From IMG/VR virus record IMGVR_UViG_3300042484_001840, positions 64,001 to 128,000 of that record: a stretch of DNA of 64,000 nucleotides. One strand, written 5' to 3'. Below the pieces are notes generated by a model. The model was not told the origin of the DNA and did not search any database. It saw only the letters and a list, made by a program, of their open reading frames with translations. Positions 13,778 to 39,968 of the stretch are shown one piece after another. How positions within the stretch are numbered: the stretch's first letter is position 1; each line of letters begins with the position of its first letter. This DNA is from a virus. Position numbers and translations under genes: made by a program.

Positions 13778-13810
13778 TTATCCACAAAGTTATCCACAGA
13801 CTTATTCACA
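13778..13810 (+). promoter_or_regulatory. DnaA-box cluster (3 boxes, 12-bp pitch)
   Basis: TTATCCACA at 13778 and 13790; TTATTCACA at 13802. Confidence 0.75.
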
Positions 13811-13940
13811 GGCAAAAAATAGGGGGTCATCCGCCACCGTACGAAAAAGAGACACACAGTCCCGTACCCCAAATCGGGGAGCGGGGCTATCAACCTTCAT
13901 GACAAATTCTGTCAATACTTGCAAGCATTAGCCCCGCAAC

Positions 13941-13954
13941 CGAACTAATGTTCG
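13941..13954. promoter_or_regulatory. LexA (SOS) box
   Basis: CGAAC-TAAT-GTTCG matches the Gram-positive/actinobacterial GAAC-N4-GTTC consensus; ends 4 bp before the ATG at 13959. Confidence 0.7.
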
Positions 13955-13958
13955 TAGC

Positions 13959-14324
13959 ATGATCAACCAGAATAAGTGGACAACCCACATCACAGCACTC
14001 CGCTCATATGCGGAACGAACAGGAACTACGCGAGTCCCGCGGACTCATGTAGAAAATACAGAAACAGGTGAAGTGCGCCTCGGCGCTTGGGTGTCGTATG
14101 TTCGTCACCGCCAGCGCAAGGGACACTTGTCAGTTGTGCAGATTCAGGAACTTGCAACACTCCCGAATTGGCACTACGAACCACTGCCCGCAGGACGGAC
14201 AGGCGACTCTGCCCGTGACGCTCTCATTCAAGCACGGTCTGAAGATGGCGCACGAGTCCGTGAACTCTCACAAGAGTTTGGTCTTACTCGTCAGCGGATT
14301 CATCAAATTATTTCAGCCAAGTGA
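13959..14324 (+). CDS. Helicase-associated (HA) domain plus C-terminal HTH protein
   Basis: W...L..Y...G..RVP..H...LGAWV...R HA motif; VRELSQEFGLTRQRIHQI HTH. Confidence 0.72.
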   Translation: MINQNKWTTHITALRSYAERTGTTRVPRTHVENTETGEVRLGAWVSYVRHRQRKGHLSVVQIQELATLPNWHYEPLPAGRTGDSARDALIQARSEDGARVRELSQEFGLTRQRIHQIISAK

Positions 14325-14608
14325 ACAAGATGAATGAGTCATACGCCGAGTGGCAGAGAGAGTTTAGGAAGTCACAACAGGTGAAGCCGAAGAGTGAGAA
14401 AGTGAAACCAAAAGGTTTCGTACTGTTTCTCGCAATGATCTTCTACTCGCTCATAGTGTCTGTGATTTTTTTCGTTGTCGTCACTCTTGCCCTAAGTATT
14501 GCAGGGTGGTCAGACTTCCTGTCTGCTCGTGAAGTGTTCGGTATATGTTTTGGCATCTCTTCACTCAGGGGACTTGACAGAGTTTTCTACGGTAGGAATC
14601 CTTTTTAG
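14321..14608 (+). CDS. Membrane protein
   Basis: Long hydrophobic segment. Confidence 0.55.
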   Translation: MNKMNESYAEWQREFRKSQQVKPKSEKVKPKGFVLFLAMIFYSLIVSVIFFVVVTLALSIAGWSDFLSAREVFGICFGISSLRGLDRVFYGRNPF

Positions 14609-14615
14609 ATATAGC

Positions 14616-14650
14616 AAAGAGCGGTAGGTGATAAACACCTACCGCTCTTT
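14616..14650. terminator. Bidirectional intrinsic terminator
   Basis: AAAGAGCGGTAGGTG-ATAAA-CACCTACCGCTCTTT perfect stem between convergent genes. Confidence 0.8.
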
Positions 14651-14694
14651 TGTGAAGCAGAGAGGAAAGGACAAGTAACCCTCTGCTAAGAAAG

Positions 14695-16044
14695 TCAGTC
14701 GTCTAAGTTTCGTTCTTTCCAAACTGACGAGTTCTTGATTTCACCAACAGCGTTAGCCTTAAGTCTCTTGCCTTGCTTGACTTGTTTCAATGCCTTGATA
14801 GCACCTTCAACATCATTAACTTGGTGAATACTGTGCTTAATAACAAGGTTCGCACACTCATCAGTCAGGTTGGCAAAGTTATTGTCGCCCTTGCCATCGG
14901 TAACATAACCATCGCAAACCCAAATGAATGGTTCGCCTTGCTTACGCTTGGCTTGTGCGAAACGAATAGCAGGACCATCAACGCCGTTACCGCCGTTGCC
15001 AGTAGGAACTTTCTCAACAACCTTGCCTCGTTCTGCCATTACCCAAACATTCGGGATTTCCTCAGAACCAACTCGGTGAGAGTAACCAATGATTACGCAA
15101 CCGGGCGCTTCCTCAATAATCTCCCACAAGTTTTCTGTTTCCAAACGCATTGAACCTGATTGGTCAATAAGAACAACACCGCCTCGTCCCTTAGCACGAC
15201 GATCAAAAATGCGTCGCTCAGGGTCTGTCAACATTCGTCCAATGCGACGAGGGTTGCGACCAATGTTAGTAGCAACTCTTTTTCGTCCAAGGTTTCCGTC
15301 AACAGCACGAGGCTTTGGAAGTTCTAATTCAATGAGTCTAGCGAACGCACCAGCGCCTGATTTTGCAATGTTCTTGACATCAGGAATTTCCTCGTTACCA
15401 AACTCATCAGGAGTTCCATCGTTACCTTCAGGCTTTAGCAAACTTTCAAGAAGTCGTGCGATAGGAACGGTCAACTTGTTGAAACCTTGCGGTAGACCAT
15501 TCTCATCCGCCACCGTGGAAGCAACAGCAGGTGTTTTTTTCCATATCTTGGCGAGTGCTTTTTGCAATTCTCGTGCTTGCTTCTCAAACTCAGGATTCGT
15601 TGTCTTGAGTCCTCGTAAGAAGTTTGCACCAGCCTTAGTGCCAGCGACAGCAGGAAGGAAACGAACAACTCCGTTCCAATCTCCGTTCTCGCCAATGATT
15701 TTTCCTGTCTGCGATTCAGAACCGTCTGCTAGTGCGTCAATAGGGAAGCCCTGTTTTGCAACCAACATATTCACACGAAACTCCTCTGCCATCATAAGCA
15801 GGTCAGTTTCAATTCCTAGTGCCAGCATTGCTTCAGGATTCGTTGGCGAAACTTTTGCGTGCATAAGTTCGTGAGCACGAACGACACGAGAAGTGTCGTC
15901 AGCGCCGTACGGTACTCGCATTTTTGCCGCTCGCATTTCTGTCCAAGCGTCACCTCGCACGGGGTTGCCCTCTTGGACTTCCCACGCACGAGGCTCAATG
16001 TCACGCCTGTTGATAAATTCGGGCATTGCTTTCATAACCTGCAT
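14695..16044 (-). CDS. vWA-domain protein with N-terminal HExxH metallopeptidase motif (CobT-like MoxR partner)
   Basis: AHELMH; MIDAS motif IDQSGSM; GGN.D and VCDG. Confidence 0.75.
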   Translation of the reverse strand: MQVMKAMPEFINRRDIEPRAWEVQEGNPVRGDAWTEMRAAKMRVPYGADDTSRVVRAHELMHAKVSPTNPEAMLALGIETDLLMMAEEFRVNMLVAKQGFPIDALADGSESQTGKIIGENGDWNGVVRFLPAVAGTKAGANFLRGLKTTNPEFEKQARELQKALAKIWKKTPAVASTVADENGLPQGFNKLTVPIARLLESLLKPEGNDGTPDEFGNEEIPDVKNIAKSGAGAFARLIELELPKPRAVDGNLGRKRVATNIGRNPRRIGRMLTDPERRIFDRRAKGRGGVVLIDQSGSMRLETENLWEIIEEAPGCVIIGYSHRVGSEEIPNVWVMAERGKVVEKVPTGNGGNGVDGPAIRFAQAKRKQGEPFIWVCDGYVTDGKGDNNFANLTDECANLVIKHSIHQVNDVEGAIKALKQVKQGKRLKANAVGEIKNSSVWKERNLDD

Positions 16045-16045
16045 A

Positions 16046-16765
16046 TCAAGAAACTCCGTTCACTAAGATTGCGTCTAATACGGACTGATAGTGTTTTCCG
16101 AAAGTTAGGCGTGCCGCCTTCTCCACAGAAACTGTTTTGCGTAGAGTGTCAAACGCCATAAATGCTCGGATAGAGAAACGCCTATCCTTGTCAGCGTCAG
16201 CCGAAGCGGCCGCCGCTCCTCGCAAATCAGGCGAGAGCATTGTCAGAGCGTCAGGGTGAGGCGTGTTGATTCGCACAGCAACGGGAAAGCGGTCTTTGAG
16301 AGCCTGAGGCAACTCACGCATATCCTCAATGTTCGTGGTCATAAACACCGAGAAGCCTTTTTTCGGCTTCAAGATTCGTCCTGTCTCAGGATGTTCCCAA
16401 GAGGCAGATTCCTCACTGTCAAACATCGCAAGTAGTTGCGACATAACATCGCCTGACGCACGGTCAATTTCGTCAGCGACAACTCGTCCGCCGTTGATAC
16501 CGTCGCCTTGCCACGCCTTGATAACAGTGCCATCTTGCCATTTCCAAGTGCCATCGCCTGATGGCTTGAAGTGACCAGTAACATCGGCACTCGTCATATC
16601 CTCGTTACAGATAAGACGGTGAGCACCTGCCGAAACATTGCCAAATGTAAGACCAGCGAATGTTTTGCCCGTTCCTGGCGGTCCGAACAGAATTAGTTTG
16701 TTGATTCCTGAGTCAAGAATGTCGTTGACATCTTGCCAGCATTCGGGGAGATTAGTAGTAGTCAT
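16046..16765 (-). CDS. MoxR/CobS-like AAA+ ATPase
   Basis: Walker A GPPGTGKT, Walker B VADEID, TTN sensor and ALKDRF. Confidence 0.85.
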   Translation of the reverse strand: MTTTNLPECWQDVNDILDSGINKLILFGPPGTGKTFAGLTFGNVSAGAHRLICNEDMTSADVTGHFKPSGDGTWKWQDGTVIKAWQGDGINGGRVVADEIDRASGDVMSQLLAMFDSEESASWEHPETGRILKPKKGFSVFMTTNIEDMRELPQALKDRFPVAVRINTPHPDALTMLSPDLRGAAAASADADKDRRFSIRAFMAFDTLRKTVSVEKAARLTFGKHYQSVLDAILVNGVS

Positions 16766-16909
16766 AGTTTGTCCTTTGCTAGTAGCGGGTTTTCCCGTGT
16801 TTGATAAGTATACACCCTGTGTGTAGAAATTGCAACTTTATTTCAGAAATTATTTGACATTTTTTTTAGAATGTAGTGGCAGGGAGATTTCCCCCCTGCC
16901 ACTCACTCA

Positions 16910-17308
16910 TCAGGCGACCTGAGAGATATTGACTACATTCTCAGTGTCGTTGGCGATTTCCGTGACTCGTACTTGGTCGTACTTAGTGACGGTAGTAATC
17001 GCCTCAGCAATATCGCTGGGGATAACGCCCAACTCAACGGCGGACTTGAATTTCTTACCGTCCACTTCAAGTTTGGTAACTTGCTTGAGAACGATAGGCG
17101 AGACAAGTTCGGTCAATGCCTTCAGGTTGTACTTGGGTCGCTCACCATTGACGATGAGAACCTTTTGTCCGTCCACGACATTGAAGTTGAGTCCCTTTTC
17201 AGCGTAGGCAAGTTTCAAGTCTGCCTCTGCTTGGGCTTTAGCCTTTTCAGCATTTTCCAATGCTTGCTTGGCATTCAAGTAGTTGAGAGTGATTTGTGTG
17301 AGATTCAT
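16910..17308 (-). CDS. Hypothetical protein (N-terminal coiled coil)
   Basis: Conserved promoter/leader upstream; hairpin at 16876-16902 downstream. Confidence 0.65.
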   Translation of the reverse strand: MNLTQITLNYLNAKQALENAEKAKAQAEADLKLAYAEKGLNFNVVDGQKVLIVNGERPKYNLKALTELVSPIVLKQVTKLEVDGKKFKSAVELGVIPSDIAEAITTVTKYDQVRVTEIANDTENVVNISQVA

Positions 17309-17387
17309 AATTTGTCCCTTTCAGTAGTGGTGTGTATTCATTATACAGGTTGTGCGTAACAATTGCAACCTTATTTCTAAATTATTT

Positions 17388-17615
17388 TCAGAATTCGTAT
17401 TCGTCGCCTGTTGATACCCAACAGATTTCGCCATCTTGAAAACCTTGGCGGTAAAGTTTGCCAAGAACAACAAGTAAGCCGTTAGAGATACTCCCCAACT
17501 TGCTTGTGATGTATTCCTCGGCGGTAGCGTCGGTACTAAACAACTCGTAATTAGTGGCAATGTAATCGCCGTGCATTTCTCCATAAAGAACCGCTTGAAA
17601 GAAATTCGTACTCAT
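17388..17615 (-). CDS. Hypothetical protein
   Basis: Cassette leader upstream. Confidence 0.6.
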   Translation of the reverse strand: MSTNFFQAVLYGEMHGDYIATNYELFSTDATAEEYITSKLGSISNGLLVVLGKLYRQGFQDGEICWVSTGDEYEF

Positions 17616-17698
17616 ATTGTGTCCCTTCGTTAGTAATTGCTTGCGGAAATAAGTATATCAGGTGGGTGTATGAATTACAACATTATTACTTAGATTTA

Positions 17699-17764
17699 TC
17701 AGATATTTTTCAGAACCATAGATAATGTTCCGAGTAGGTATAGACCAACGAATAAGAGTCCCAT
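17699..17764 (-). CDS. 21-aa hydrophobic micropeptide
   Basis: MGLLFVGLYLLGTLSMVLKNI, with its own promoter and CTACTACAGAAGGA leader. Confidence 0.5.
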   Translation of the reverse strand: MGLLFVGLYLLGTLSMVLKNI

Positions 17765-17880
17765 AGTAATCCTTCTGTAGTAGGTGAAATATAAGTATAC
17801 AGGTTGGGTGTAAGAATTACAACCTTATTTATGTTACAGAATGATTACAATAATTGTAACAGAAATGTTATATTAAAATG

Positions 17881-17947
17881 TTGTATTTGTTACACAGAAG
17901 TGCTATACTTATATTCGTAAGTTACTACTACCGAAAAGGACAAAACT
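17881..17947 (+). promoter_or_regulatory. Representative early promoter plus leader
   Basis: TTGTAT-17bp(containing TACAC)-TATACT, then ACTACTACCGAAAAGGA before the ATG; about 35 related copies occur in 10.8-42.9 kb. Confidence 0.8.
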
Positions 17948-18145
17948 ATGGAAGCGAAATGTTGCGCCGATAAGCCGATGCTAGAAGTTTATGGTTACGA
18001 GGGTTGTGCGGATTGTTACGATAAATGGTGCGAGGGCGAACTTATCGCCTATGAAGATTTACGCCGTGCAGAGTTCGCAAACTCTTGGGTGATTGGTGGC
18101 GGTTACGCCTCAGACGCTGATCTCGCTTACGAACAGTTTGCGTGA
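17948..18145 (+). CDS. Small Cys-rich hypothetical protein
   Basis: Cassette promoter/leader upstream. Confidence 0.6.
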   Translation: MEAKCCADKPMLEVYGYEGCADCYDKWCEGELIAYEDLRRAEFANSWVIGGGYASDADLAYEQFA

Positions 18146-18298
18146 TGGCGAGTCCCACTGCTGAAAGGCGGTGGGACAACCACTTAGTCCCGCTTGGGCA
18201 GTCTCATCCGCCACCGTCATTCATTGGGAGCGCGCGTGCGGGGCTATCTCGGTATACCCCACCCCTAAAGCCCCGTATCCCCCAAAAATTTCTGGGGG

Positions 18299-18330
18299 TT
18301 ATCCACAGGCTGGGGATAACCTGTGGATAA
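18299..18330. promoter_or_regulatory. DnaA-box cluster (3 boxes)
   Basis: TTATCCACA at 18299, TGGGGATAA at 18311 (1 mismatch), TGTGGATAA at 18322. Confidence 0.7.
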
Positions 18331-18340
18331 CTTTGACCCG

Positions 18341-18517
18341 TCAGCAAGCCCCCTCACAATACTCGCAAGTGGTCTCGTCAACTTCGTGACAGCCATTCCA
18401 GCCTTCGTCAACTTTGTTGTTGTCGGCGCAATACTGTATGCGACACCAGTCAGAACAGAAAACAATTCTGTCAACGATGTCGCCACTCTTATCTTCAATC
18501 AAAAGTAGGTGAGCCAT
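18341..18517 (-). CDS. Small Cys-rich hypothetical protein (58 aa)
   Basis: Manually translated MAHLLLIEDKSG...FCSDWC...CEYCEGAC after a cassette leader. Confidence 0.6.
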   Translation of the reverse strand: MAHLLLIEDKSGDIVDRIVFCSDWCRIQYCADNNKVDEGWNGCHEVDETTCEYCEGAC

Positions 18518-18647
18518 TATTTTGTCCCTTCGGTAGTAGTGCCTTACCTTATCTATTATAGCAGGCGGGTGTAGAAATTACAACTCGATTTGTTAAATTT
18601 ATTTAGAACTTTGGGGGCGGACTTTCGCCCGCCCCCAACGCTCATGA

Positions 18648-18935
18648 TCAGGCTTCGCACTCGCAGTCGTAGTGGAGTTCTTCGCACCAACCGCAGTGGT
18701 CACGATCCCACTCTTCGTCTTCGTCTTCTTCGTCCTGAATGTCAAAAGACACCCAAGCCATGACGGTACGAAGCAAGTGGTCGTAATCGCCAGCAGTGGC
18801 GTTCTGAGTGAACTCAGCGATTACTTCCCGTGATACGCCGTGATTACGGAGCGCACCACAAACTCTTGCGATAATGCTGAACGCATTACCGTCCTGCCCG
18901 ACGAGCAGAACCGAAACTTCAGGATACTTAACCAT
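18648..18935 (-). CDS. Conserved small phage protein
   Basis: LVGQDGNAFSII...AL...GDYDHLL motif. Confidence 0.7.
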   Translation of the reverse strand: MVKYPEVSVLLVGQDGNAFSIIARVCGALRNHGVSREVIAEFTQNATAGDYDHLLRTVMAWVSFDIQDEEDEDEEWDRDHCGWCEELHYDCECEA

Positions 18936-19108
18936 AATTTGTCCCTTCGTTAGTAGTTTTTCCTTACCTGATAAGTATAGCAGATAGGTGTAACAACTAC
19001 ACCATTGTAGAGCGTGTCATTTGTCACATAAGATTTATTCGTAAAAGTGTGTAAATGCTACACCCACCTGCTATAATATATATATCACCTACTACGAAAG
19101 GAAAAAAT

Positions 19109-19441
19109 ATGATTTGGAAAGCAAAAGCCTCCGACATTATTGACCACCTTGTTTACTCAGGGGCAGACACCTATGAGTGGTATCACGAACTCACCGAAAC
19201 CAAAGACGGACAAATTGTCTGTACGATGGAAACGGGCGAGTACGACGATGAGTCTGAACCGTTGACAGCGAGTGTTGCGTTCTCCCCCACTCACGCCTTG
19301 ACAGTCGCCAATGCGATTATCAAGGGACAGGGAGCGGGTTGGCGCACCGTTCAGTCAGCAGTCGCTAATGACGACTTTGACTCCGATGCCGCGGACATCG
19401 TTCTCCAGCACATCGTGCTGAGCGACTTGGTGTTCGGCTGA
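19109..19441 (+). CDS. Hypothetical acidic protein
   Basis: Start MIWKAK after the leader; ends DSDAADIVLQ...VFG. Confidence 0.65.
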   Translation: MIWKAKASDIIDHLVYSGADTYEWYHELTETKDGQIVCTMETGEYDDESEPLTASVAFSPTHALTVANAIIKGQGAGWRTVQSAVANDDFDSDAADIVLQHIVLSDLVFG

Positions 19442-19479
19442 GACTTCAGGGCGGGGGAGGGAAACCTCCCCCAAGACCC

Positions 19480-19523
19480 TGTGGATAACCTTTTCCACAG
19501 CCTGTGGATAACCCTGTGGATAA
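19480..19523. promoter_or_regulatory. DnaA-box cluster (4 boxes)
   Basis: TGTGGATAA at 19480, 19503 and 19515; TTTTCCACA at 19491. Confidence 0.78.
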
Positions 19524-19802
19524 CTTTCCCGATAGCCCCGTATACAAAGTGCGGGTGCGGGACTGTCACGATAAATAGTCGTGGAAATTCTTGAATTGAA
19601 AAAACGGGAAGCGGGGCTAACAAACTAAATAGCAGGGGTCAAGCCCCTGCCACACTAGTCACTCGGTCCACGAGAACCCGCAAATCCAACAGAATGTCTG
19701 TCATTTTGCCCGCCTCGGCAATACTGACTCCCCGCAAATCACGGAGAGTCTCGTCAATGAGGTTATATATTTCCTCGGTTGGCGTGAGTAAATTTAACTG
19801 AC

Positions 19803-20195
19803 TCATACTGTCGCCCCTTCCTTGATCTTGGCTAGTTGTTCGGCACGAATTGCGTTTACTTCCTCGGCTGAGAATACCTTACCGAACACGCTCAACATGG
19901 TACGAATGTCGTCGTCCACGCCCGTAGTGTTACCTTCCTCGTCGTACCCTGCGATAACAGCAGGTCCGACAAGTCGGTAACCTTCGCCAGCCAAAGTAGA
20001 AGCGAACTCGTTTAAGGCGAAGTCAGAACGGAATAAACCTTCCTCGTTCAACCACAAGTCAAGACCGTTCACCAATTGAACGCTCTCAATGAGTCCCTGA
20101 ACGAGACTCTGGAGAAACTCCAAAGACTTTTGACCTTCGGGCTTCTGAACAATGTACGGCGAACCGTCTAAATCGTTGATGTAAATGACTTGCAT
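19803..20195 (-). CDS. DUF3846-like protein
   Basis: LEFLQSLVQGLIE...LWLNEEG...N..A...LVGPAVI. Confidence 0.7.
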   Translation of the reverse strand: MQVIYINDLDGSPYIVQKPEGQKSLEFLQSLVQGLIESVQLVNGLDLWLNEEGLFRSDFALNEFASTLAGEGYRLVGPAVIAGYDEEGNTTGVDDDIRTMLSVFGKVFSAEEVNAIRAEQLAKIKEGATV

Positions 20196-20287
20196 AATTA
20201 GTCCCTTTCGTAGTAGTGTTTATATATTATAGCCTTGTGGGGCAGGAAAGTCAAATCCTGCCCCACAATTATTTCATTTCTTTAGGC

Positions 20288-20476
20288 TCAGACCGTGACC
20301 TTGCGTGCCTTGCGTCGCGCGCGGACATTGCGGATCTCTGCGCGAAGTGATGCGGTGAGTCCAGCCTTGATCCAAATGGCGGTTATCAAAGAAGCGTTGA
20401 TCATAACCAGCAAGCCTCTGATGACTTCCAAAGTGTAATCCGAGAGAGTGAAGTTGATAGTGTATTGAGCAATCAT
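20288..20476 (-). CDS. Small membrane protein
   Basis: One TM segment and a basic tail; cassette leader. Confidence 0.55.
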   Translation of the reverse strand: MIAQYTINFTLSDYTLEVIRGLLVMINASLITAIWIKAGLTASLRAEIRNVRARRKARKVTV

Positions 20477-20630
20477 TTTGTGCCTTTCGTAGTAGGTATG
20501 AGATAAGTATAGCGACTTTGTGTAACTTTTACAACCTTCTAGTAAGTGTCATTTGTCACACTACTCAATGTTGTAATTTCTACACAGACTCGCTATAATA
20601 TACTTGTACACAACTACTAAAGGAGAAAAT

Positions 20631-20864
20631 ATGCTCAGCACCAAAATTGGAAATAGTGACTGGTACTTCGTTCTCAACAACGGAGCGACTCGCAAGTTCT
20701 CAGTTCAGTTTCTCGGCAGACGACGAGGAGACGACAAGCGAGACATCGTGACATTCCGTGAAGGTGCGCCACACTACGAGGCGTACACGACCGAGACGGG
20801 CAAAGCAATTCCGAAGTTTGTCGCAAAAGCAATTTGGGAAGCAATGGAAAAGTCCCCCGCCTGA
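20631..20864 (+). CDS. Hypothetical protein
   Basis: Start MLSTK after ACTACTAAAGGAG. Confidence 0.6.
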   Translation: MLSTKIGNSDWYFVLNNGATRKFSVQFLGRRRGDDKRDIVTFREGAPHYEAYTTETGKAIPKFVAKAIWEAMEKSPA

Positions 20865-21045
20865 CAAGCGGGGGAAACCCTTTAGCCCCGTTGGATATAT
20901 GCGTGCGTGGAAAGTTTTGACGCTTCTCTTCCGCCACCGTCAATAGTAGGGAACACAGGGGCGGGGCTGTCACCCCTAAATAGGGGTGTTCAGGGGGCGT
21001 ACCTCACGATACGCCCCCTTCGGGTGGCCAAACTCGCCACTCGCC

Positions 21046-21492
21046 TCACTCCTCGTTGAACAAGTCGTTCAGCATTTGCGTTTCTAAGTTCCGCATACTA
21101 GAACTTTCCACGATGTCACTAACCATCTTGCCTAGGTCAAAGCCCGCTTCTGCGAGTTCTGCTAGAAGTTCCTCAGACGGTTCTTCCTCAACTTCGGCGT
21201 AGTGTTGTTGCTTCTCGTCGTCGCTCATCGCTTGGATACTGCGGTCATAGCCAACCCAATTCCCAATGTTTGAGTACTCGTCTAGTTGCTCGTGAGTAAG
21301 ATTGAACTCACGCATAACACGCTCGGTCATGACCGATGAAGGTATGCCTTCACCTAACTCCACGCTTCGCTTAGCGTTCTCTATGAGAAGGCTCGTACGG
21401 TAGTTACAAAGCCGTACGAAGTGGTCAGGGTAGTAGAACGATACTCCATTGGGGAATTCGCTATCAGGGAAAAAATCGGACTTGGTAATCAT
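21046..21492 (-). CDS. Hypothetical protein
   Basis: Start MITKS after CGAAAGGA. Confidence 0.6.
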   Translation of the reverse strand: MITKSDFFPDSEFPNGVSFYYPDHFVRLCNYRTSLLIENAKRSVELGEGIPSSVMTERVMREFNLTHEQLDEYSNIGNWVGYDRSIQAMSDDEKQQHYAEVEEEPSEELLAELAEAGFDLGKMVSDIVESSSMRNLETQMLNDLFNEE

Positions 21493-21508
21493 TAGTAATC
21501 CTTTCGGG

Positions 21509-21736
21509 TCAGAGGTCTGGTAAGTAATCAAATTCTACGGTTGTCTCCCAAGAGATATCTTTCATTTCCCAACCGTAGTGGTAGCGAAGGTTCTTGGTTG
21601 CCATGTCAATGGCGACTTCTGTTAGTTGGTCATTATCCAAGTTGGTGAATGACGGCTCCTCTAAATCTATCTCAACAAAGTGAGTCAGAGAAAAGAAATC
21701 TCCAACAAAGGTGACATTACAACTTGCGTGCTTCAT
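21509..21736 (-). CDS. Hypothetical protein
   Basis: Leader with CGAAAGGA. Confidence 0.55.
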   Translation of the reverse strand: MKHASCNVTFVGDFFSLTHFVEIDLEEPSFTNLDNDQLTEVAIDMATKNLRYHYGWEMKDISWETTVEFDYLPDL

Positions 21737-21779
21737 AGTAATCCTTTCGGTTGTAGTTGGTATGGGGTGAAGTTGGGGG

Positions 21780-22295
21780 TCAGACCCCCAACTCCTCGGC
21801 TAGTTGCTTCTGAGTCTTACCTAGGTGCTTCTTAGCGCACACAGGGCCGACTCCGACACGATGACCGTAGCCATCCTTGTCGTCTAGTTCGGCACTACAG
21901 AACAAACAAACGCCCGTACGCACGCCGTACTCCATAGCGACGAGTGCGGTGACCTTTTCGGTTGGCGAGAGCAGGGAGATCGCTCCACGCTCGTAAATCC
22001 AACCGCTTTCGCCACGACGCATTGCGTAGAGATTGCCACCTTCGGATTGCTTCACCTTGTAGATCAAGTGACCGACGAGGTAGAAACCGACTTCGGTAAC
22101 CTTCTCGGCAGGCTTGACTTCCGTAGCAGGCTTAGCCATAACCTTGGCGAACATTGAACGGATAGCCTTTTCTTGCGCTTCGCTCAATGCGCCCTTGTTC
22201 TCAAAAGTCTTAGCGATTGAGATTGCGAACGCACTCCACTGTTGGGCTTTCGCCCATTCAATGACGGAAGTAATCGGGGTCAATGTGGTAGTCAT
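21780..22295 (-). CDS. DUF6011-like Zn-finger protein
   Basis: G.CLFCSAELDD...GVGPVCAKK. Confidence 0.7.
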   Translation of the reverse strand: MTTTLTPITSVIEWAKAQQWSAFAISIAKTFENKGALSEAQEKAIRSMFAKVMAKPATEVKPAEKVTEVGFYLVGHLIYKVKQSEGGNLYAMRRGESGWIYERGAISLLSPTEKVTALVAMEYGVRTGVCLFCSAELDDKDGYGHRVGVGPVCAKKHLGKTQKQLAEELGV

Positions 22296-22370
22296 AATTT
22301 CTCCTTAGTAGTAGTGGTGATAAATACAAGTATACAGCAGGGGTGTATGAATTACAACCCCTGCCTCGGC

Positions 22371-22493
22371 TCACCAAGTTGGTGGCCGACCGATGAAGTT
22401 GCCATCGGAGTCGTAGCAACCATTGTCGGGGTCAAGGTAGCCCTGAGCGTCGTAGCGGTCAGGATCGTTGTAGTCGTCATGATCGTTATTCAT
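22371..22493 (-). CDS. 40-aa acidic peptide
   Basis: MNNDHDDYNDPDRYDAQGYLDPDNGCYDSDGNFIGRPPTW, with its own promoter/leader. Confidence 0.55.
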   Translation of the reverse strand: MNNDHDDYNDPDRYDAQGYLDPDNGCYDSDGNFIGRPPTW

Positions 22494-22816
22494 AATTTCC
22501 CCTTTGTAGTAGTTGGTATTTAATAAGTATACAGGCTTCGTGTAAGAATTACAACCTTATTCGCAAGATTATTGGTGTGACATTGGTCACAGGCCAGTCG
22601 TCTGGGGGCTTGGGGGTCGTCGGCCGGGTTTGGGGAGTTTGGCCACCCTGCTTCGGAGGCATTTAGTCCCGCTTGGTTATGGCGAGTTTCCCGTGTTTGT
22701 CGCAAGCCCCGCAGGTGAAAACGGCAAAGCGGAGATGCGGGGCTAGTGGTGGTTTTCGGATTAGCAATTATATGTAAGGGGTGGGGCAGGGTTTCCCCCG
22801 CCCCACCATGCCCCTG

Positions 22817-23185
22817 TCACCACACAGGAGTAAATCGTCGCTCGTCGGCGTTGTAAGCGTGTTCGTAGTGAGTGCCTTTATTCTCAAGGTTACGAACTTC
22901 AATTTCTTGAACGAGACGCTTGGCAATTGCGCTGAAGTTCAAGCCATCAGTGCCTGCCACCATTCGCTTGCGTCGGTGGGCGATAACCGAAGCGGTAACC
23001 AATTCCGAACGCTTGAGTGCGTTCTCGTCGGCGTACACCTTCGTTACTGCGTCGGCTACTTGTTGGTAATCCCAACAGGCGTTGTACATTCCGCCGAGCA
23101 GTGTAATTAAATCAAATCGTGACGGAAGTGAATAGTAATCGCCCTGTAATTTGGTGGGCTTATTCTTATGCCATTTGGTAAGCAT
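22817..23185 (-). CDS. Hypothetical protein
   Basis: Cassette promoter/leader upstream. Confidence 0.6.
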   Translation of the reverse strand: MLTKWHKNKPTKLQGDYYSLPSRFDLITLLGGMYNACWDYQQVADAVTKVYADENALKRSELVTASVIAHRRKRMVAGTDGLNFSAIAKRLVQEIEVRNLENKGTHYEHAYNADERRFTPVW

Positions 23186-23358
23186 ATTTTTTCCTTTCGT
23201 AGTAGTGGTTATGAATATAAGTATACACCTTCTGTGTAGGAATTACAACTTCTAGCGTCAAATAATTGTGTGACAAATGACACTAGGCAGAACTGTGTAA
23301 ATGCTACACCCACCTGCTATACTTGTATATGTAAGGAAAACCTACCGAAAGGAATACT

Positions 23359-23541
23359 ATGAATAACGCAGAATTGTTCGTGTGGAATGAAATTGAAGAG
23401 GGCTTCATTCGTGAGTATGGAATTGAAGACGGTATACGAGTGTGCGATTACGCACAGCGTGTATATTACAGGAGTGGCAAGATGACCCTAGCCGTCAAGG
23501 CGGCAACGGAATGGGCTAGCAGAATGAGAATGGGAGTCTGA
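23359..23541 (+). CDS. Small protein, paralog family A
   Basis: WNEIEEGFIREYGIEDGIR, similar to the 25375 and 28374 genes. Confidence 0.6.
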   Translation: MNNAELFVWNEIEEGFIREYGIEDGIRVCDYAQRVYYRSGKMTLAVKAATEWASRMRMGV

Positions 23542-23542
23542 T

Positions 23543-23743
23543 ATGGCAAGTGTTTCAGTAAGCGGTGTCGCCCTACTAGGTAAGACAACGGCAGTAGGTT
23601 CTCATATAGATTTACGAGAACGCCTAGCCTACCTAGAGGGCGTTCTCAGCGGGCTAGAGAACGCTGGAGTAGTTCTGCCTACGGGAGACTACGAGACGCT
23701 CTACAGGACGCTCAAAGATACCAAAGAATTTCTTTACGAATAA
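23543..23743 (+). CDS. Hypothetical protein
   Basis: Immediately follows the previous gene. Confidence 0.5.
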   Translation: MASVSVSGVALLGKTTAVGSHIDLRERLAYLEGVLSGLENAGVVLPTGDYETLYRTLKDTKEFLYE

Positions 23744-23744
23744 C

Positions 23745-23773
23745 TTGACATTCCTACACCTAGGGTGTATAAT
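23745..23773 (+). promoter_or_regulatory. Perfect sigma-70/SigA consensus promoter
   Basis: TTGACA-17bp-TATAAT. Confidence 0.8.
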
Positions 23774-23808
23774 ATACCTATAACGAAAACTAACCGAAAG
23801 GACTACTA

Positions 23809-23979
23809 ATGGCTACCGTTCCCAACTACGAAATTGAACGACTAAATGAGTTTGTCGCAGAAATTGAAATTGCGATTAAGGAACACGGTTACGCATATGC
23901 GTACGGTGCGACAATGTTCAACTTGAAGTCTTTGCTCAACCAAATTACCCGTGAGCCAGCACCTTGGGAGAACCTATGA
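23809..23979 (+). CDS. Small hypothetical protein (56 aa)
   Basis: MATVPNYEIERLNEF... after CGAAAGGA and the consensus promoter. Confidence 0.55.
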   Translation: MATVPNYEIERLNEFVAEIEIAIKEHGYAYAYGATMFNLKSLLNQITREPAPWENL

Positions 23980-24091
23980 AATACAAATGGAATGAACTAG
24001 AAAAGTTCGCCTTCGCCACGCAGAAGTTGCGGGCGAACCGAATTCCTGACAAGAAAAAAGAGTCAAACCGAAAAGCGTGTAGGAAGCGAGA

Positions 24092-24364
24092 CTACTGAGT
24101 CTCGCCAACTACTCCGCTAGCCCCGCCCTCATCTTGAGCGTGCGGGGCTTTTGCTTTCCATAAACCAATTGGACATTCTGCATTGGACAGGGTTGTCTTC
24201 AATGGCATGAAGCACCCGCAAATTCCGCAAGTGCTTAGACGCTTACTGAAGTGGTCACAGCCCCGACAGATGTCTAAGCGTTCTTTTCGTTCCAAGCGGG
24301 TCAAGCGGGGGATTGACGGGCGTAGTAAATCCGTGAATTGCGCAGGAGATTGTTCTTCGTTCAT
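24092..24364 (-). CDS. Cys-rich small protein (DUF6171-like)
   Basis: RLDICRGCDHF...CGICGCFMPLK...CPIGLW. Confidence 0.6.
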   Translation of the reverse strand: MNEEQSPAQFTDLLRPSIPRLTRLERKERLDICRGCDHFSKRLSTCGICGCFMPLKTTLSNAECPIGLWKAKAPHAQDEGGASGVVGETQ

Positions 24365-24434
24365 ACGCTAATTGTATCCACGGAAGTATACCTAAGGGGT
24401 ATGACATAGTTGCCCATGCCATACCCCTTGATTA

Positions 24435-24788
24435 TCACAATTGGATAAACCTACCCAATTTGAATATCTGCTGGATAAGTGCGCCCCATGAGCAGTAGTA
24501 GTGCATGACTACCAATTTCTTGCTCGCTGGGTAATACTTGCCCGTACCCCAAGTATCTGTCTTAGTGGGGTTCTCGCCTTGATTAACAGCATACGGTTGA
24601 TTGAGTGCCACTCCGCAACAGGAACAGGGTAGTGAACCAAATTCGCCATCAAGGGCTAAGTGGATCATCTGCATGTTGCGCTTACGCTTCATGCCTTGGC
24701 GGAGTGCTTCAAGCGTGTCTGCTTCGGCGTATGCCTTAGCACCGTGTTCCCACGGTTTACGGTAAGCGGGTTTAGTAATGGTAGTCAT
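24435..24788 (-). CDS. Hypothetical protein
   Basis: Start MTTITK after the leader. Confidence 0.6.
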   Translation of the reverse strand: MTTITKPAYRKPWEHGAKAYAEADTLEALRQGMKRKRNMQMIHLALDGEFGSLPCSCCGVALNQPYAVNQGENPTKTDTWGTGKYYPASKKLVVMHYYCSWGALIQQIFKLGRFIQL

Positions 24789-24903
24789 TAGTAGTCCTCT
24801 CAGTAGTTGTAAATATAAGTATACAGGAGAAGTGTAACAATTACAACATTGCATAGTATGACAATTGTCACTATCGGTATTGCGCCTAATTACTTATGAG
24901 TAT

Positions 24904-24932
24904 ATTATACACGATAGGTGAATGAATGTCAA
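24904..24932 (-). promoter_or_regulatory. Perfect sigma-70/SigA consensus promoter with AT-rich upstream tract
   Basis: Minus-strand TTGACA-17bp-TATAAT; 24933-24993 is almost all A/T. Confidence 0.75.
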
Positions 24933-25187
24933 GTATTTACACAAAATAATTTATTATATTTAGTTTTATAAATAATATCTATAATATATAAATGTCTTCC
25001 GCCACCGTCAATAGTAGAAGCGCTTAGCCCCGTTCATTTTTTGGCAAATTTATATCATTTCTACCAATTTCATATCAGTTCGGGTGCGGGGCTGTCAGCC
25101 TTCTGAAATACTTTGTAATACAAGGTGATACAGGGAATTACTGCGTGCGGGGCTAATAGTTTTCTTTCCCGCCAATCAAGTCGCCCC

Positions 25188-25292
25188 TCATTCCATCAAA
25201 TCTTTAAAATCATCCCAAAACAGAGCGACAATAATTCCCGCAACCATTCCAAGCGCCCCAAGTCCAATCAAAAAGTCGTTTAGCAATTCCAT
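25188..25292 (-). CDS. 34-aa membrane micropeptide
   Basis: MELLNDFLIGLGALGMVAGIIVALFWDDFKDLME after ACTACAAAGGAG. Confidence 0.55.
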   Translation of the reverse strand: MELLNDFLIGLGALGMVAGIIVALFWDDFKDLME

Positions 25293-25374
25293 AATTTCTC
25301 CTTTGTAGTAGTTGGTTACATAGACAATTATACAGGAGGGGTGTGGCAGAGTTTCCCCTGCCACCCCCAAGCGA

Positions 25375-25554
25375 TCAGTAGACCGCTCGCTCTCGGCGTT
25401 CCCACTCAATCGCATTGGCGACTGCCTTGGCAATCCCCTTGGCGGTTTGGCTATGAGTACGACTGGCTCGTTCACCAATTCGCAACCCTCGCTCTAACCC
25501 GTACTGGCGGATTAGGTTTTCGTGGATCTCATCCCATAAGAATTTGGTATTCAT
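25375..25554 (-). CDS. Small protein, paralog family A
   Basis: MNTKFLWDEIHENLIRQYGLERGLR. Confidence 0.6.
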   Translation of the reverse strand: MNTKFLWDEIHENLIRQYGLERGLRIGERASRTHSQTAKGIAKAVANAIEWERRERAVY

Positions 25555-25642
25555 ATTTTCTCCCTTAGTAGTGGTGACTTCCTTACATATATAAGTATAC
25601 ACAAGGGGTGTGGCAGAGTTCCCTCCGCCACGCCCCCAGCGA

Positions 25643-27147: not shown

Positions 27148-27179
27148 GGGGGTAGGGTTTGACCCCCACCCCCACTCAA

Positions 27180-27870: not shown

Positions 27871-27892
27871 TTATCCACAGGGCTGTGGACAA
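27871..27892. promoter_or_regulatory. DnaA-box pair
   Basis: TTATCCACA at 27871, TGTGGACAA at 27884. Confidence 0.65.
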
Positions 27893-28636: not shown

Positions 28637-28772
28637 CGAACAGGTGTTCGCACGGAGACACCGAACAAGTGTTCCCCGAACGGGTGTTCGTACCGAACAA
28701 GTGTTCGCTTGATAAAAATACGCACCGACGCATAAAAATACACCGAACAGGTGTTCTACGAACAGGTGTTCG
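28637..28772. promoter_or_regulatory. Array of six LexA (SOS) boxes
   Basis: CGAAC-N4-GTTC at 28637, 28662, 28677, 28694, 28744 and 28759. Confidence 0.85.
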
Positions 28773-36024: not shown

Positions 36025-36025
36025 A

Positions 36026-37506: not shown

Positions 37507-37745
37507 CAGCCGCTCGGCAAGCGGGGCTAGTTGAGATACTGGGGTAAAACCCGAACGACCTGAGTATGTCGTAAAACTACTCTTCTTTGCTATCTCCCGA
37601 TAGCCCCGTACTCGCCACGAACTCGGATTTTTTTGTGACGGACTTTTTGCTACTGCCGTTTTTTCATTTCGTGCTTCGGATTTTTTTGTGAAAACTTTTC
37701 GCTACTGCTATTTTTTCAGTACGGGCTTTTATGCAAAAAAAAAAG

Positions 37746-37778
37746 TTATCCACAGGCTGTTGATAAACCTGTGGATAA
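37746..37778. promoter_or_regulatory. DnaA-box cluster (3 boxes)
   Basis: TTATCCACA at 37746, TGTTGATAA at 37758 (1 mismatch), TGTGGATAA at 37770. Confidence 0.7.
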
Positions 37779-37781
37779 CTC

Positions 37782-38090
37782 TCATTGCTGACTCGTGGAA
37801 ACTTTTGTTCTGTTCCGTAACCCAATCATTGCGGACAAATAAAATCCTGCCGCGTGACGCTCCATCTCTGTTTCTCCGCCCCACACGCCGTACTCGTGGT
37901 TTTTCCTGCCGTACTCTCGGCACTCTGCGGATACAGGGCATTGCCGACATATAGCGACCGCTTGTGCTTCACGCTTTACCCGTCTCTCAGGTCGCTCGGC
38001 AACCTTAGGGAAGAATAGGTCTAACTTGCCACTACAAATTCCCAACTTCTGCCATTCGGTATCTAGAGTTTGAGTGTCGTTGTCGGTCAT
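37782..38090 (-). CDS. whiB: WhiB-family transcription factor
   Basis: W...C...LFFP...ICRQCPVSAECREY...YGVWGG. Confidence 0.92.
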   Translation of the reverse strand: MTDNDTQTLDTEWQKLGICSGKLDLFFPKVAERPERRVKREAQAVAICRQCPVSAECREYGRKNHEYGVWGGETEMERHAAGFYLSAMIGLRNRTKVSTSQQ

Positions 38091-38782
38091 ACAAACTCCA
38101 TAATCAGAACTGAGTCGTCTTCCATTGTGTCTCTGCCAAGCACATGAACTTCCGTGCCTTCGCTATTCCATATTGCTCGCACATGATGATGACCGCAAAT
38201 GTGAAAGCGAGGCTTCACCTTCTGCTGGATCTCAAGTACTAACTCTCGCTGGTACACAGATACGGGAATGTCGTCCTTGTATGTGAGTTCAACTCCGTAG
38301 GGTGCGTCATGAGTAATGAGCACATCTACTTCCTCGTCGCTGAGTGTGTCAATATGGTAGGGGCTGATGAGTTCTTGCTTCCACCAAGTACGACCTAGTT
38401 CCCTATCTTTCCAATCCACGCTATACGCTCCGCCATACCCCATAAAGGTATAGCCGTTCATATCAAAGCGACAGCCACGAGGTATCCACTTCACCCATTC
38501 GTTGGGCGTAGGGATAGGTCTAGTGTCTCCGTGCTGAGTGCGTAGGTCGTCTAGTAGGTCGTGGTTCTCGTGGTTGCCATCTATCCACATGAGTGGAATA
38601 TTGTTGGCTTCTGCGAGTGCCACACAGCGTGCTAGGAACTTCTTACCAAAGGGCAAATGTACCCAGTAGCCAAAGTCACCGCAAGCGATAATCGTATTCA
38701 CTTCGTTCTTGTGTGCGTGGGCGTATAGCCATTCAAGGTGCTGAATGTTTCCGTGAATGTCGCCTGCGAATAGTACTTTCAT
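38087..38782 (-). CDS. Metallophosphoesterase
   Basis: GDIHG, GDFG, DGNHE, THDAP and CGHHH motifs. Confidence 0.85.
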   Translation of the reverse strand: MKVLFAGDIHGNIQHLEWLYAHAHKNEVNTIIACGDFGYWVHLPFGKKFLARCVALAEANNIPLMWIDGNHENHDLLDDLRTQHGDTRPIPTPNEWVKWIPRGCRFDMNGYTFMGYGGAYSVDWKDRELGRTWWKQELISPYHIDTLSDEEVDVLITHDAPYGVELTYKDDIPVSVYQRELVLEIQQKVKPRFHICGHHHVRAIWNSEGTEVHVLGRDTMEDDSVLIMEFV

Positions 38783-38877
38783 TATGTTCACCTCCAGGGT
38801 GATTAGTAGTTATGTGTATAGTATATCAGAATTGTATATAGATTACAACCCCGATGAGCGTGTGATTAGTCACACGA

Positions 38878-39183
38878 TTACTTGACATCTCCCCAACCTC
38901 GCCAAGCCTTACCCCAACGAGGCGAGGTAGTGCGTAGGTAGCACGCCCACAAGGGGTGGCGCTCTACGACCATCTCGGGCAAGATGACATGAACGAATAG
39001 GTCTAGTCGCCGTATGAACCTACAAGGCGAACCTAACCTATAGCGAGACACAGGGGCGCTCTCATGAGCCTCCACGAACGCTCTAAGGCTCGTAGGGTCT
39101 ATATCCCAAGGGTCAAGCCCTACTCTGTCTGCGAGTGTGCGTATCAAACTAGTTCGTACCACTTCATGATATGCGGACCACAA
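38878..39183 (-). CDS. Hypothetical protein
   Basis: ORF track. Confidence 0.4.
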   Translation of the reverse strand: MWSAYHEVVRTSLIRTLADRVGLDPWDIDPTSLRAFVEAHESAPVSRYRLGSPCRFIRRLDLFVHVILPEMVVERHPLWACYLRTTSPRWGKAWRGWGDVK

Positions 39184-39410
39184 CCCCCATAGTGGATAGC
39201 CATGATCTCGGCAAGCACTAACTCAAACTCTTTGCCTTGTGAGTAGGTCAAGGTAGGGTCGTTGCCTAGCACTTGCTTGACTCCCTTGTATGTGTCTGCG
39301 ATGAGTTGAGCCTGCCTAAGTGACTCAAGGCGAGGCGTTGTATTCTTTGATACTGCCTTGCTTCTGACGATCTCTCGTACTTGCTCTATGTTGCTGAGTA
39401 GGTCGTTCAT
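39144..39410 (-). CDS. Hypothetical protein
   Basis: ORF track; coupled to the upstream gene. Confidence 0.5.
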   Translation of the reverse strand: MNDLLSNIEQVREIVRSKAVSKNTTPRLESLRQAQLIADTYKGVKQVLGNDPTLTYSQGKEFELVLAEIMAIHYGGCGPHIMKWYELV

Positions 39411-39411
39411 C

Positions 39412-39642
39412 TCATTTCCCCTTCGTTGTTTGTAGTCGTACTCGTGTGCTCGTGACTTTCTTTTGCTCTGTTGCCTTGCGTGTCAAGCGACCCCAACCCC
39501 AACTAGTAGGTGACTTCACTTCGCTTTGCTTTGCCTTGCGTGTCAAGTAAAAGTGTGCGACAAGTGTGTCATTGGGATTGAACTCTGACAGTTCATCTAT
39601 GAGCATTTGTACTGTCATTTTTGATAATGTATTGCGTGTCAT
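39412..39642 (-). CDS. Hypothetical basic protein
   Basis: Start MTRNT after ACTACTACTAAAGGA. Confidence 0.55.
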   Translation of the reverse strand: MTRNTLSKMTVQMLIDELSEFNPNDTLVAHFYLTRKAKQSEVKSPTSWGWGRLTRKATEQKKVTSTRVRLQTTKGK

Positions 39643-39793
39643 GCTTTGTCCTTTAGTAGTAGTGACAAGGTAATCATACACAACTATCAAACAAAAAGCA
39701 ACCTTTATCAAAAGAAATATTTATTATAGTTATGTGACATAATCAACAACTATCATAACAATAATGATTACATATATAGCAATTACATATCAG

Positions 39794-39968
39794 TTATACA
39801 CAACCTGTGGATAAGGTGTGGATAACTTTGTACACAGGCTGTGGGTAACGCTGTGGATAACGATGAGTGCTGTGGATAATGCTGTGTATAACCTGTGTAT
39901 AACCTGTGGATAAAGCGAGGCATCAACTGTGGATAACTAGCACCATCTGTGGACAAAGATGTGGATAA
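39794..39968. repeat. DnaA-box array (13 boxes, mostly co-oriented) next to an AT-rich tract
   Basis: TGTGGATAA/TGTGTATAA/TGTGGACAA at 39806, 39817, 39852, 39871, 39883, 39894, 39905, 39928, 39948 and 39960, plus 39794, 39828 and 39840; AT-rich 39690-39793. Confidence 0.88.

Follow-up and report, generated by a model that had tools for sequence, protein, structure and literature searches.

Gene content and DnaA-box clusters of the early region

The uncultured phage IMGVR_UViG_3300042484_001840 has a unit genome of ~134 kb, contained in a 145-kb record whose ends are redundant (1-11341 of the record = 133702-145042, 99.63% identical). This redundancy holds structural genes and no DnaA-box clusters. 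The window analysed here is a 64-kb stretch of that record, to which the feature coordinates below refer. The phage encodes a primase-helicase and an SSB, as a preliminary description of the window had reported, and dnaA and dnaN are indeed absent, PF00308, PF08299 and PF00712 being without a match in the whole record. Neither was DnaA domain IV encoded by the phage, and a phage-encoded DnaA was rejected because no match was found. Searches for PolA, PolB, Pol III alpha and a clamp detected none in the phage, and a 679-aa ORF (43237-45276), considered as a hidden polymerase, was rejected since it lacks PDB or Pfam support. The initiator/loader-like pair of the preliminary description was not borne out: 16046-16765 encodes an AAA_5/CobS-like ATPase, and the neighbouring 449-aa protein matches an unknown PHROG only. 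No Rep-like family was present among the flanking ORFs scanned. No integrase or resolvase was found, the sole related matches being ParB_N-domain proteins, and a temperate or plasmid lifestyle was rejected on these grounds. WhiB, DUF732 and HA domain genes speak for an actinobacterial host, as do capsid relatives in phages of Brevibacterium and Gordonia; a ThyX search of genome contigs, aimed at identifying the host, gave no match.

In the window, TTWTNCACA occurs 47 times against 7.58 +/- 2.63 in 100 shuffles (largest 15), in line with the claimed excess. The preliminary description had counted about 50 boxes in about nine clusters, and 41 of the 47 sites lie where it had placed them. With up to one mismatch to TTATCCACA, the 145-kb record contains 76 sites, of which 60 fall within 13.7-40.1 kb of the window. 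All nine clusters lie in this interval, spread over 26 kb; none was found in 1-13 kb or 40-64 kb of the window, as had been noted, or in the remaining genome. The clusters are non-coding, again as described, except for short ORFs arising from the repeats themselves. Relative to a 99% identical phage, two of these ORFs are hit by indels, one of 22 nt and one of 11 nt, and this speaks against their being genes. The triad at 18299 may be part of the 3’ terminus of a genuine small gene. The claim that spacers are often convergent applies to 19480 and the main array, whereas 13778 is divergent and 37746 and the 39.8-kb array are co-directional. Five clusters begin 4-39 nt past a stop codon and two lie upstream of promoters.

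The leftmost cluster consists of three tandem boxes on the + strand (13778-13810; two perfect, 12-bp pitch), situated 18 nt upstream of the -35 of a shared early promoter on the - strand (13732-13760). At a distance of 130 bp to its right are a LexA box (position 13941) and the promoter that serves the + gene at 13959, and the 13.8-kb control region holds both kinds of site. The AT-rich flank at this cluster has p=0.05. At 18299-18330, a triad of forward, inverted-degenerate and inverted boxes, which can form a hairpin, is found ~230 bp downstream of an early promoter (18555-18583). Four boxes, three of them perfect (19480-19523), occupy a convergent spacer 39 nt past the stop of the + gene 19055-19441.

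The main array (26562-26950) comprises 20 boxes (20-23 in other counts), 11 of them perfect. In its core (26696-26950) a 92-bp unit occurs 2.8 times, a unit being two triads plus a 20-bp spacer with a short palindrome of the TTGTAG-T-CTACAA type; this palindrome is present 2-3 times and could be bound by an unknown protein. The array lies in a convergent spacer, does not adjoin a promoter and has no AT-rich flank (p=0.25 to 0.93). Two copies of AAGCATTAGCCCCGTTTGTTTTTT separate it from three further boxes (27115-27147), 33 nt past the stop of the - gene 27180-27467. A head-to-head pair (27871-27892) follows 37 nt past the stop of the + gene 27505-27834, immediately after a G/C hairpin. Further on, six LexA-type operators (CGAACnnnnGTTC) on the + strand (28637-28772) abut a TTGACA upstream of an SNF2 helicase gene.

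The two remaining clusters bracket a - strand operon (39711-37782). At its end, a - strand triad (37741-37783; boxes at 37746-37778) forms, on the - strand, an 18-pair hairpin with a T10 tract after it, a terminator-like arrangement 4 nt after the WhiB gene (37782-38090). Upstream of the operon, 13 boxes (39794-40073, - strand) include 11 that are co-oriented (TGTGGATAA on the + strand), with a pitch of 11-23 bp. This array adjoins an AT-rich stretch (39680-39800; 78-82% AT, 99.5th percentile of the genome, p=0.03) whose polarity agrees with that of the E. coli DUE relative to box R1. The stretch is also a promoter region and holds, on the - strand, a TATAAT (39723-39728) placed 12 nt ahead of the operon's first start codon.

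Identity and distribution of the boxes

Among the clustered boxes, 29 of 49 (59%) are perfect TTATCCACA. Of the 20 single changes, 13 affect positions 3 and 5, at which TTWTNCACA is degenerate, and the remaining variants, TTATCAACA and TTATCCCCA, are those described in T5. The flanks are G...G, and neighbouring boxes are 11-13 bp apart in 33 of 41 intervals, a close and helically phased spacing of the kind that would permit cooperative binding. The 9-mer and its tolerated variation are thus those of a DnaA-box cluster. The recurring module is a triad of two tandem boxes plus one inverted, and of 80 bacterial loci with exactly this triad, 47 have dnaA no more than 8 kb away, the triad being upstream of it by 60-900 bp in most cases. 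That these DnaA-type boxes belong to a genuine phage was also upheld: because dnaA/dnaN are absent, phage genes flank the clusters on both sides and an independent assembly shows the same clusters, a chimera with a host oriC was rejected.

Conservation proved partial: all clusters are kept in the 99% relative, and relatives at 59-82% identity have several clusters despite gene shuffling, whereas G001 (55% identity), a 50-kb fragment spanning the syntenic early region, has none. The boxes are therefore not indispensable to the phage family. G001 had suggested arrays peculiar to one lineage, a notion overturned by the metagenome relatives with clusters. The nearest cultured capsid relatives (Cantare, Gordonia phages) carry no clusters, and relatives at 80% identity have three box pairs only. 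Arrays of near-identical strains differ by whole modules. Between two close strains, substitutions inside and outside boxes were 10/306 and 17/432 (p=0.69), giving no signal of purifying selection in strains that are too similar for this comparison. In the 59-82% relatives the boxes are often interleaved with LexA operator arrays, predicted LexA and DnaA sites coming as close as overlapping, and each hub has 4-7 LexA operators, likewise an excess.

DnaA-box arrays occur widely among viral contigs: three tandem perfect boxes are carried by more than 120 of them, and the conserved triad is present in cultivable Streptomyces phages. Other phage contigs with such boxes mostly have one cluster each, and across 67 viral arrays surveyed AT-rich flanks are ~2-3 times enriched. 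DnaA is encoded by none of the 50 triad-bearing viral records tested, while the same box consensus is found in viral contigs spanning 26-66% GC, which suggests a universal host protein, not a phage-specific binder. Four triad-bearing contigs of ~130 kb (G008, G011, G030, G049) were considered as kin and rejected, having no primase-helicase match. A Pfam scan of array neighbours in ten other viral contigs was uninformative.

Possible roles of the arrays

Binding of DnaA and LexA, and every functional step below, is what we infer from these sequences. We favour, with a probability of about 40%, a platform on which host DnaA, along with LexA, would be recruited so as to gate early transcription and set its boundaries, possibly including one DnaA-assisted origin. 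The clusters would be selected sites for host DnaA, built from the box module of bacterial oriC and dnaA surroundings, and the phage would load DnaA at at least nine places in its early region. DnaA is a transcription factor, and can also block transcription at DnaA boxes. Small clusters past stop codons, one of which has the hairpin and T10 described above, would be DnaA-reinforced boundaries or terminators of short early cassettes, and those upstream of the 13.7- and 39.7-kb promoters would modulate these promoters. Next to the 39.7-kb AT-rich stretch, the co-oriented 11-box array may also assist DNA opening for the helicase-primase of the phage. The main array, with 20-23 boxes and no unwinding element, would be a high-capacity DnaA sink, and draining of DnaA from the host origin would be a physical consequence of it. 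Together, the DnaA sites and LexA operator arrays would wire early transcription to the replication and DNA-damage state of the host.

This reading is consistent with the perfect boxes, tolerated variants, pitch and flanks, with the triad beside bacterial dnaA, with the consensus in viral contigs that encode no DnaA, with the placement relative to stop codons and promoters, and with the clusters kept in relatives. It also accommodates the LexA sites at 13.8 kb and at the SNF2 gene. We assign the array at 28637-28772 to the same platform because relatives interleave DnaA and LexA boxes, an arrangement that points to gene control or wider host-factor use. Against it, 20 or more boxes far exceed the need of promoter control or of a boundary, and the main array adjoins no promoter. 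The lack of clusters in G001 and of any substitution difference inside and outside boxes also count against it. The reading is moreover composite, giving separate predicted roles to separate clusters.

The preliminary description had proposed that the boxes could act as a sponge, sequestering host DnaA on incoming and replicating phage DNA and blocking re-initiation. In this reading the main array above all would serve that end at the expense of host oriC, and the host replisome would be freed, which the phage would need because it is without a recognisable polymerase. The LexA arrays, likewise excessive in number, could be a decoy that switches on the SOS response. As precedents, DnaA is titrated by two kinds of chromosomal locus, E. 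coli datA and the DnaA-box clusters of B. subtilis, and initiation is upset by DnaA boxes on multicopy plasmids. The phage carries 31 perfect boxes in 134 kb versus 27, 27 and 59 in whole actinobacterial genomes (2.6-4.4 Mb), a load that shows heavy use of the host master regulator DnaA via predicted sites and, equalling the perfect-box content of a whole genome, makes titration physically plausible if DnaA binds. The main array, with 23 boxes in 600 bp where the 80 chromosomal triad sites sampled have 6-7 (median) and at most 17, resembles the datA/DBC type in being a cluster of putative high-affinity boxes away from an unwinding element. Its convergent spacer, the proportion of perfect boxes and the whole-module changes between strains would suit a sponge as well. 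The chromosomal clusters differ in serving the host cell cycle, whereas those of the phage are on a virus and known from sequence; datA furthermore needs IHF and promotes ATP hydrolysis. Three box pairs, as in the 80% relatives, are too few for a sponge, and the ancestral role therefore cannot be bulk titration. Small clusters are precisely positioned relative to stop codons and promoters, and LexA sites are interleaved; strong titration requires many genome copies, which arrive late in infection; and a literature search found no paper on such a mechanism. The proposal is partly supported, and we regard the sponge as possible but doubtful. Its dual form, in which interleaved DnaA-box and LexA-operator arrays soak up both regulators without any protein, shutting off host initiation, freeing the replisome and turning on SOS without DNA damage, with array size tuned via module gain and loss, is unlikely.

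The other suggestion of the preliminary description, recruitment of DnaA to a phage origin, suits the 39.8-kb array only. DnaA would oligomerise on the large arrays and open adjacent DNA for the phage helicase-primase and host Pol III, the small clusters being auxiliary or relics. The phage has a helicase-primase and SSB and no recognisable initiator, polymerase or clamp. Actinobacterial oriC contains 11-19 boxes. Two such oriC regions have 11-14 perfect boxes per ~300 bp, a density similar to that of the phage arrays, and bacterial oriC and dnaA promoter regions share with the phage the module of two tandem boxes plus one inverted. The 39.8-kb array adjoins an AT-rich stretch with the polarity of E. 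coli oriC. The single cluster of most other box-bearing phage contigs and the enriched AT-rich flanks of viral arrays also agree with an origin. Nine dispersed clusters are too many, however, and they are without dnaA/dnaN linkage; the largest array lacks an unwinding element, and the 39.7-kb stretch is also a promoter region. Using the very degenerate DnaA-trio rule of PMC8287927 (a run within 16 bp of a box), we saw by eye no run of three or more trios at the 39.8-kb array. GC skew (minimum in the genome at 31.8 kb, maximum in the window at 35.3 kb) tracks gene orientation only and was rejected as an origin marker. Clusters are missing from the syntenic region of G001, and a phage initiator could be among the many unannotated ORFs. 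P1 oriR, lambda, RK2 and pSC101 offer an analogy, as mobile elements without dnaA that borrow host DnaA via consensus boxes; they carry 1-5 boxes next to iterons at which a Rep protein of their own acts, whereas the phage has ten times as many boxes, and neither a Rep gene nor iterons could be recognised in it. We consider phage origin(s) improbable as an account of the clusters.

The closest published case is the non-coding injection-stop (iss) region of T5-like phages, with 7-8 DnaA boxes in pairs 3 bp apart in inverted repeats (bioRxiv 10.1101/866236; Heusterspreute 1987, as cited there). A role in DNA entry or anchoring was hypothesised for them (Davison 2020, bioRxiv 10.1101/866236). By this model, membrane-associated DnaA would hold incoming DNA at the clusters, pausing injection or tethering the early region. 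Both phages lack dnaA and have consensus and near-consensus boxes, the latter including the same two variants, in non-coding repeat-rich early DNA, with a 12-bp pitch and inverted repeats, here for example the triad at 37741-37783. T5 has its boxes at one site in the long terminal repeat, whereas those described here number ~60, occupy nine sites spread across 26 kb, are accompanied by LexA operators and lie outside the 11.3-kb end redundancy. Given this, and as the T5 role is itself a hypothesis, entry or anchoring is very improbable here. We give equally little credence to a phage protein that binds a look-alike motif or to selfish repeats without function: several small HTH proteins are encoded nearby (13959-14324, 47015-47653) and arrays grow and shrink by modules, but the motif follows the universal DnaA consensus exactly and varies as DnaA sites typically do, it recurs in unrelated phages of very different GC and beside bacterial dnaA, and the phage has no DnaA domain IV.

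Meaning for phage-host interaction

To our knowledge, earlier descriptions of DnaA boxes on phages are limited to a few auxiliary ones (P1, lambda) and to the eight of T5, which lack an explanation. In this phage family they occupy many sites, in arrays whose density is that of a chromosomal origin, alongside predicted LexA operator arrays, and no polymerase or initiator of its own is recognisable. As cultivable Streptomyces phages carry the conserved triad, the general question is accessible to bench experiments. Should the arrays govern early genes, as in the host-DnaA platform that we favour, the phage would read the replication and damage status of its host via two host proteins. If instead they titrate DnaA, with or without LexA, they would represent a new protein-free host takeover and a natural test of the initiator-titration model.

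Gene content of the phage and its replication functions

The source record is a 145,042-bp IMG/VR virus entry labelled 'linear', of which bases 64001-128000 make up the window. The opening 11,341 bases, which cover structural genes, are repeated directly at the record end (G000:C1:1-11341 = 133702-145042 in the single contig C1 of the whole record, G000; 99.63% identity, 40 mismatches, 2 gaps), which leaves a unit genome of about 133.7 kb. The redundancy looks like an assembly overrunning one genome unit across strain variants. Portal, prohead protease and major capsid protein are encoded in the record. In the window are found a CobS-like AAA_5 ATPase, an SNF2 helicase, a DUF932 protein, SSB, a metallophosphoesterase, WhiB, two DUF732 proteins, a Toprim/AAA_25 primase-helicase, ThyX, a class II ribonucleotide reductase (RNR) and a DNA methylase; the primase-helicase gene spans 47653-49365. 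WhiB, DUF732, an HA domain and the closest capsids (Brevibacterium phage Cantare and Gordonia phages, 48-50% identity) point to a putative actinobacterial host.

DnaA, DnaN, PolA, PolB, Pol III alpha, tyrosine integrase and resolvase were not detected anywhere in the record, while positive controls worked. The preliminary description was right that the phage has its own primase-helicase and SSB and no dnaA or dnaN. Its initiator/loader pair did not survive: the two genes (window 14695-16765) encode an AAA_5/CobS-like ATPase of 239 aa and a 449-aa partner matching only an unknown PHROG, and resemble the CobS/CobT type of other phages. No sliding clamp or family A, B or C DNA polymerase was detectable in the 134-kb genome, despite helicase-primase, SSB, RNR and ThyX, indicating either dependence on the host replisome or an unrecognised polymerase. 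A 679-aa ORF (window 43237-45276) gave nothing in Pfam or PDB past one weak kinase-like match. GC skew tracks transcription and marks no origin.

Structure and identity of the box clusters

TTWTNCACA sites number 47 in the window versus 7.6 +/- 2.6 in shuffled controls. With up to one mismatch to TTATCCACA, 76 sites are found in the genome, 60 of them inside window 13.7-40.1 kb, and the clusters listed in the preliminary description are all recovered from this set. The main array (window 26562-26950) contains 20 boxes, or 23 within 600 bp if its three-box neighbour at 27115 is included. It consists of 2.8 copies of a 92-bp unit, in which six boxes form two "forward, inverted, inverted" triads and a 20-bp spacer bears a short palindrome. 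The spacers (window 26766-26788 and 26860-26882) hold a TTGTAG-T-CTACAA-type palindrome, and TTGTA-N4-TACAA-type repeats fill the non-coding gap beside a DnaA triad in Streptomyces phage Faust (L216:3670-3990); both may be sites for a second protein. ORFs overlapping the arrays appear to be by-products of the repeats, because a 99% identical relative has 22-nt and 11-nt indels inside such ORFs.

All the sequence evidence agrees that the boxes are DnaA sites, binding being predicted. The consensus is perfect in 29 of 49 clustered boxes, and 13 of 20 single changes fall at positions 3 and 5, both degenerate in the classical consensus; other variants, TTATCAACA and TTATCCCCA, are ones described in T5. 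Clustered boxes have G...G flanks and a pitch of 11-13 bp. The exact triad, TTATCCACA-N2-5-TGTGGATAA-N2-3-TGTGGATAA, occurs in at least 120 bacterial genomes; among the matches listed, 47 of 80 bacterial loci have a DnaA gene within 8 kb, mostly 60-900 bp downstream of the triad, and DnaA and DnaN beside the triads were verified by Pfam. The same triad is present in 67 stretches of IMG/VR contigs (GC 26-66%), none of the 50 triad-bearing viral records tested encodes DnaA, and three tandem perfect boxes occur in at least 120 viral contigs. Because the motif is common to unrelated phages with unrelated hosts and to bacterial dnaA regions, its best explanation is the universal host protein, and a binder other than DnaA seems very improbable.

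Arrays in relatives, other viruses and chromosomes

A near-identical strain (99%) from another sample keeps every cluster, its array differences consisting of whole-module indels only. Metagenome relatives with 59-82% SNF2 identity (51-64% GC) have clusters close to the SNF2 gene: 23 boxes grouped into five clusters within 5 kb in L352, an 8-box array in L347 and L350, and three pairs of boxes in L339-L341. In G001, a relative at 55% identity, a 50-kb fragment spanning the syntenic early region has none. Conservation in relatives, on which the preliminary description depended, thus extends to the 99% strain and the metagenome relatives but not to the G001 fragment. The arrays of G000 are the largest among the relatives compared.

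In the metagenome relatives and at the end of viral record G003, DnaA boxes are interleaved with 4-7 LexA-type operators, some sites overlapping (operator arrays at L339:9632-9810, L352:1972-2141 and 4541-4675, and L208:8851-8990). In the window, six such operators (CGAACnnnnGTTCG) abut the SNF2 promoter (28637-28772) and one more lies beside the 13778 cluster. Judged by their predicted sites, the arrays in relatives are composite hubs where two host regulators would bind. To our knowledge, LexA acts only as a repressor, and bacteria have two known read-outs of replication stress, LexA and DnaA.

Viral clusters usually comprise 3-9 boxes at one site, whereas nine sites are seen here. Among the matches listed, the median over 80 chromosomal triad sites is 6-7 boxes and the maximum 17, versus 20-23 in the main array. 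Two actinobacterial oriC regions pack 11-14 perfect boxes into about 300 bp, so the main array is as dense as an actinobacterial origin. An unrelated 133-kb viral contig (53% GC; G030:C1:95639-104181, L207) carries six perfect DnaA triads at 17-18-bp pitch over 9 kb, and is a second, independent phage with many DnaA clusters. Very large arrays also occur in other viral contigs (L029:6642-7202; L081:4841-5071 and 9789-9964; L043:4514-4744; L071:938-1209), with 30 boxes in 560 bp or co-oriented runs of 12-14 boxes; in L043 and L081, a 37-40% homologue of the G000 primase-helicase is encoded nearby. The cultured Streptomyces phages Faust, Wakanda, Ankus, Byblos and MeganTheeKilla have a triad conserved within a 1.5-kb non-coding gap rich in repeats, and so provide a handle that can be tested at the bench.

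Placement of the clusters and their possible function

A 29-nt early promoter, TTGTAATTnnTACACCCnnCTGCTATAcT, is common to nine sites in window 13651-27439, where zero are expected (for example 13732-13760, 18555-18583, 19049-19077 and 27411-27439), and delimits short early gene cassettes. The clusters at 19480, 26562, 27115, 27871 and 37746 start 4-39 nt past a stop codon, the 37746 triad with an 18-pair hairpin then T10 on the WhiB operon strand. The cluster at 13778 is found 18 nt upstream of a -35 element, and the 39.8-kb array (window 39794-40073, 13 boxes), eleven of whose boxes are co-oriented, lies upstream of a five-gene minus-strand operon ending at the 37746 terminator. The heptamer CGGGGCT is present in 43 copies, only in window 8089-39989, in genes and spacers, often as inverted pairs (GCGGGGCTA...TAGCCCCG(C/T)) 20-70 nt apart and often 15-60 nt from a DnaA cluster.

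Besides initiating replication, DnaA acts as a transcription factor and is able to block RNA polymerase. We favour, with a probability of roughly 0.4, a core function in which the clusters would wire and bound early genes transcriptionally, because they sit at promoters and at the ends of genes, are linked to LexA and, in 80% relatives, amount to no more than pairs of boxes. This leaves the size of the main array unexplained. That size would suit titration of host DnaA by the arrays, a tentative second choice: box numbers speak for it (31 perfect boxes in the phage; 27, 27 and 59 in three whole actinobacterial genomes), expansion is by modules and the main array has no unwinding element, but relatives have few boxes and the idea is without precedent, our literature search finding no publication on a DnaA decoy in phages. 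A DnaA-dependent phage origin is somewhat more doubtful. It would match the 39.8-kb array, which with the 13778 cluster is alone in having AT-rich flanks (p=0.03 and p=0.05, respectively), and the lack of a phage initiator and polymerase, but it fails to account for nine clusters or for the main array, which has no such flanks. The most AT-rich 60 bp of the genome (window 24934-24993, 93% AT, in spacer 24854-25188) lies 1.6 kb left of the main array and adjoins three CGGGGCT motifs. A role in DNA entry or anchoring is highly unlikely; the nearest published case is that of T5, where eight DnaA boxes in the injection-stop region have a role that is itself only a hypothesis (bioRxiv 10.1101/866236).

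Transcriptional wiring and bounding of early genes is thus the best-supported reading for G000. From the pattern of clusters and LexA-type operators across relatives, the family trait would therefore be the possession of several DnaA and LexA hubs in a mosaic early region.
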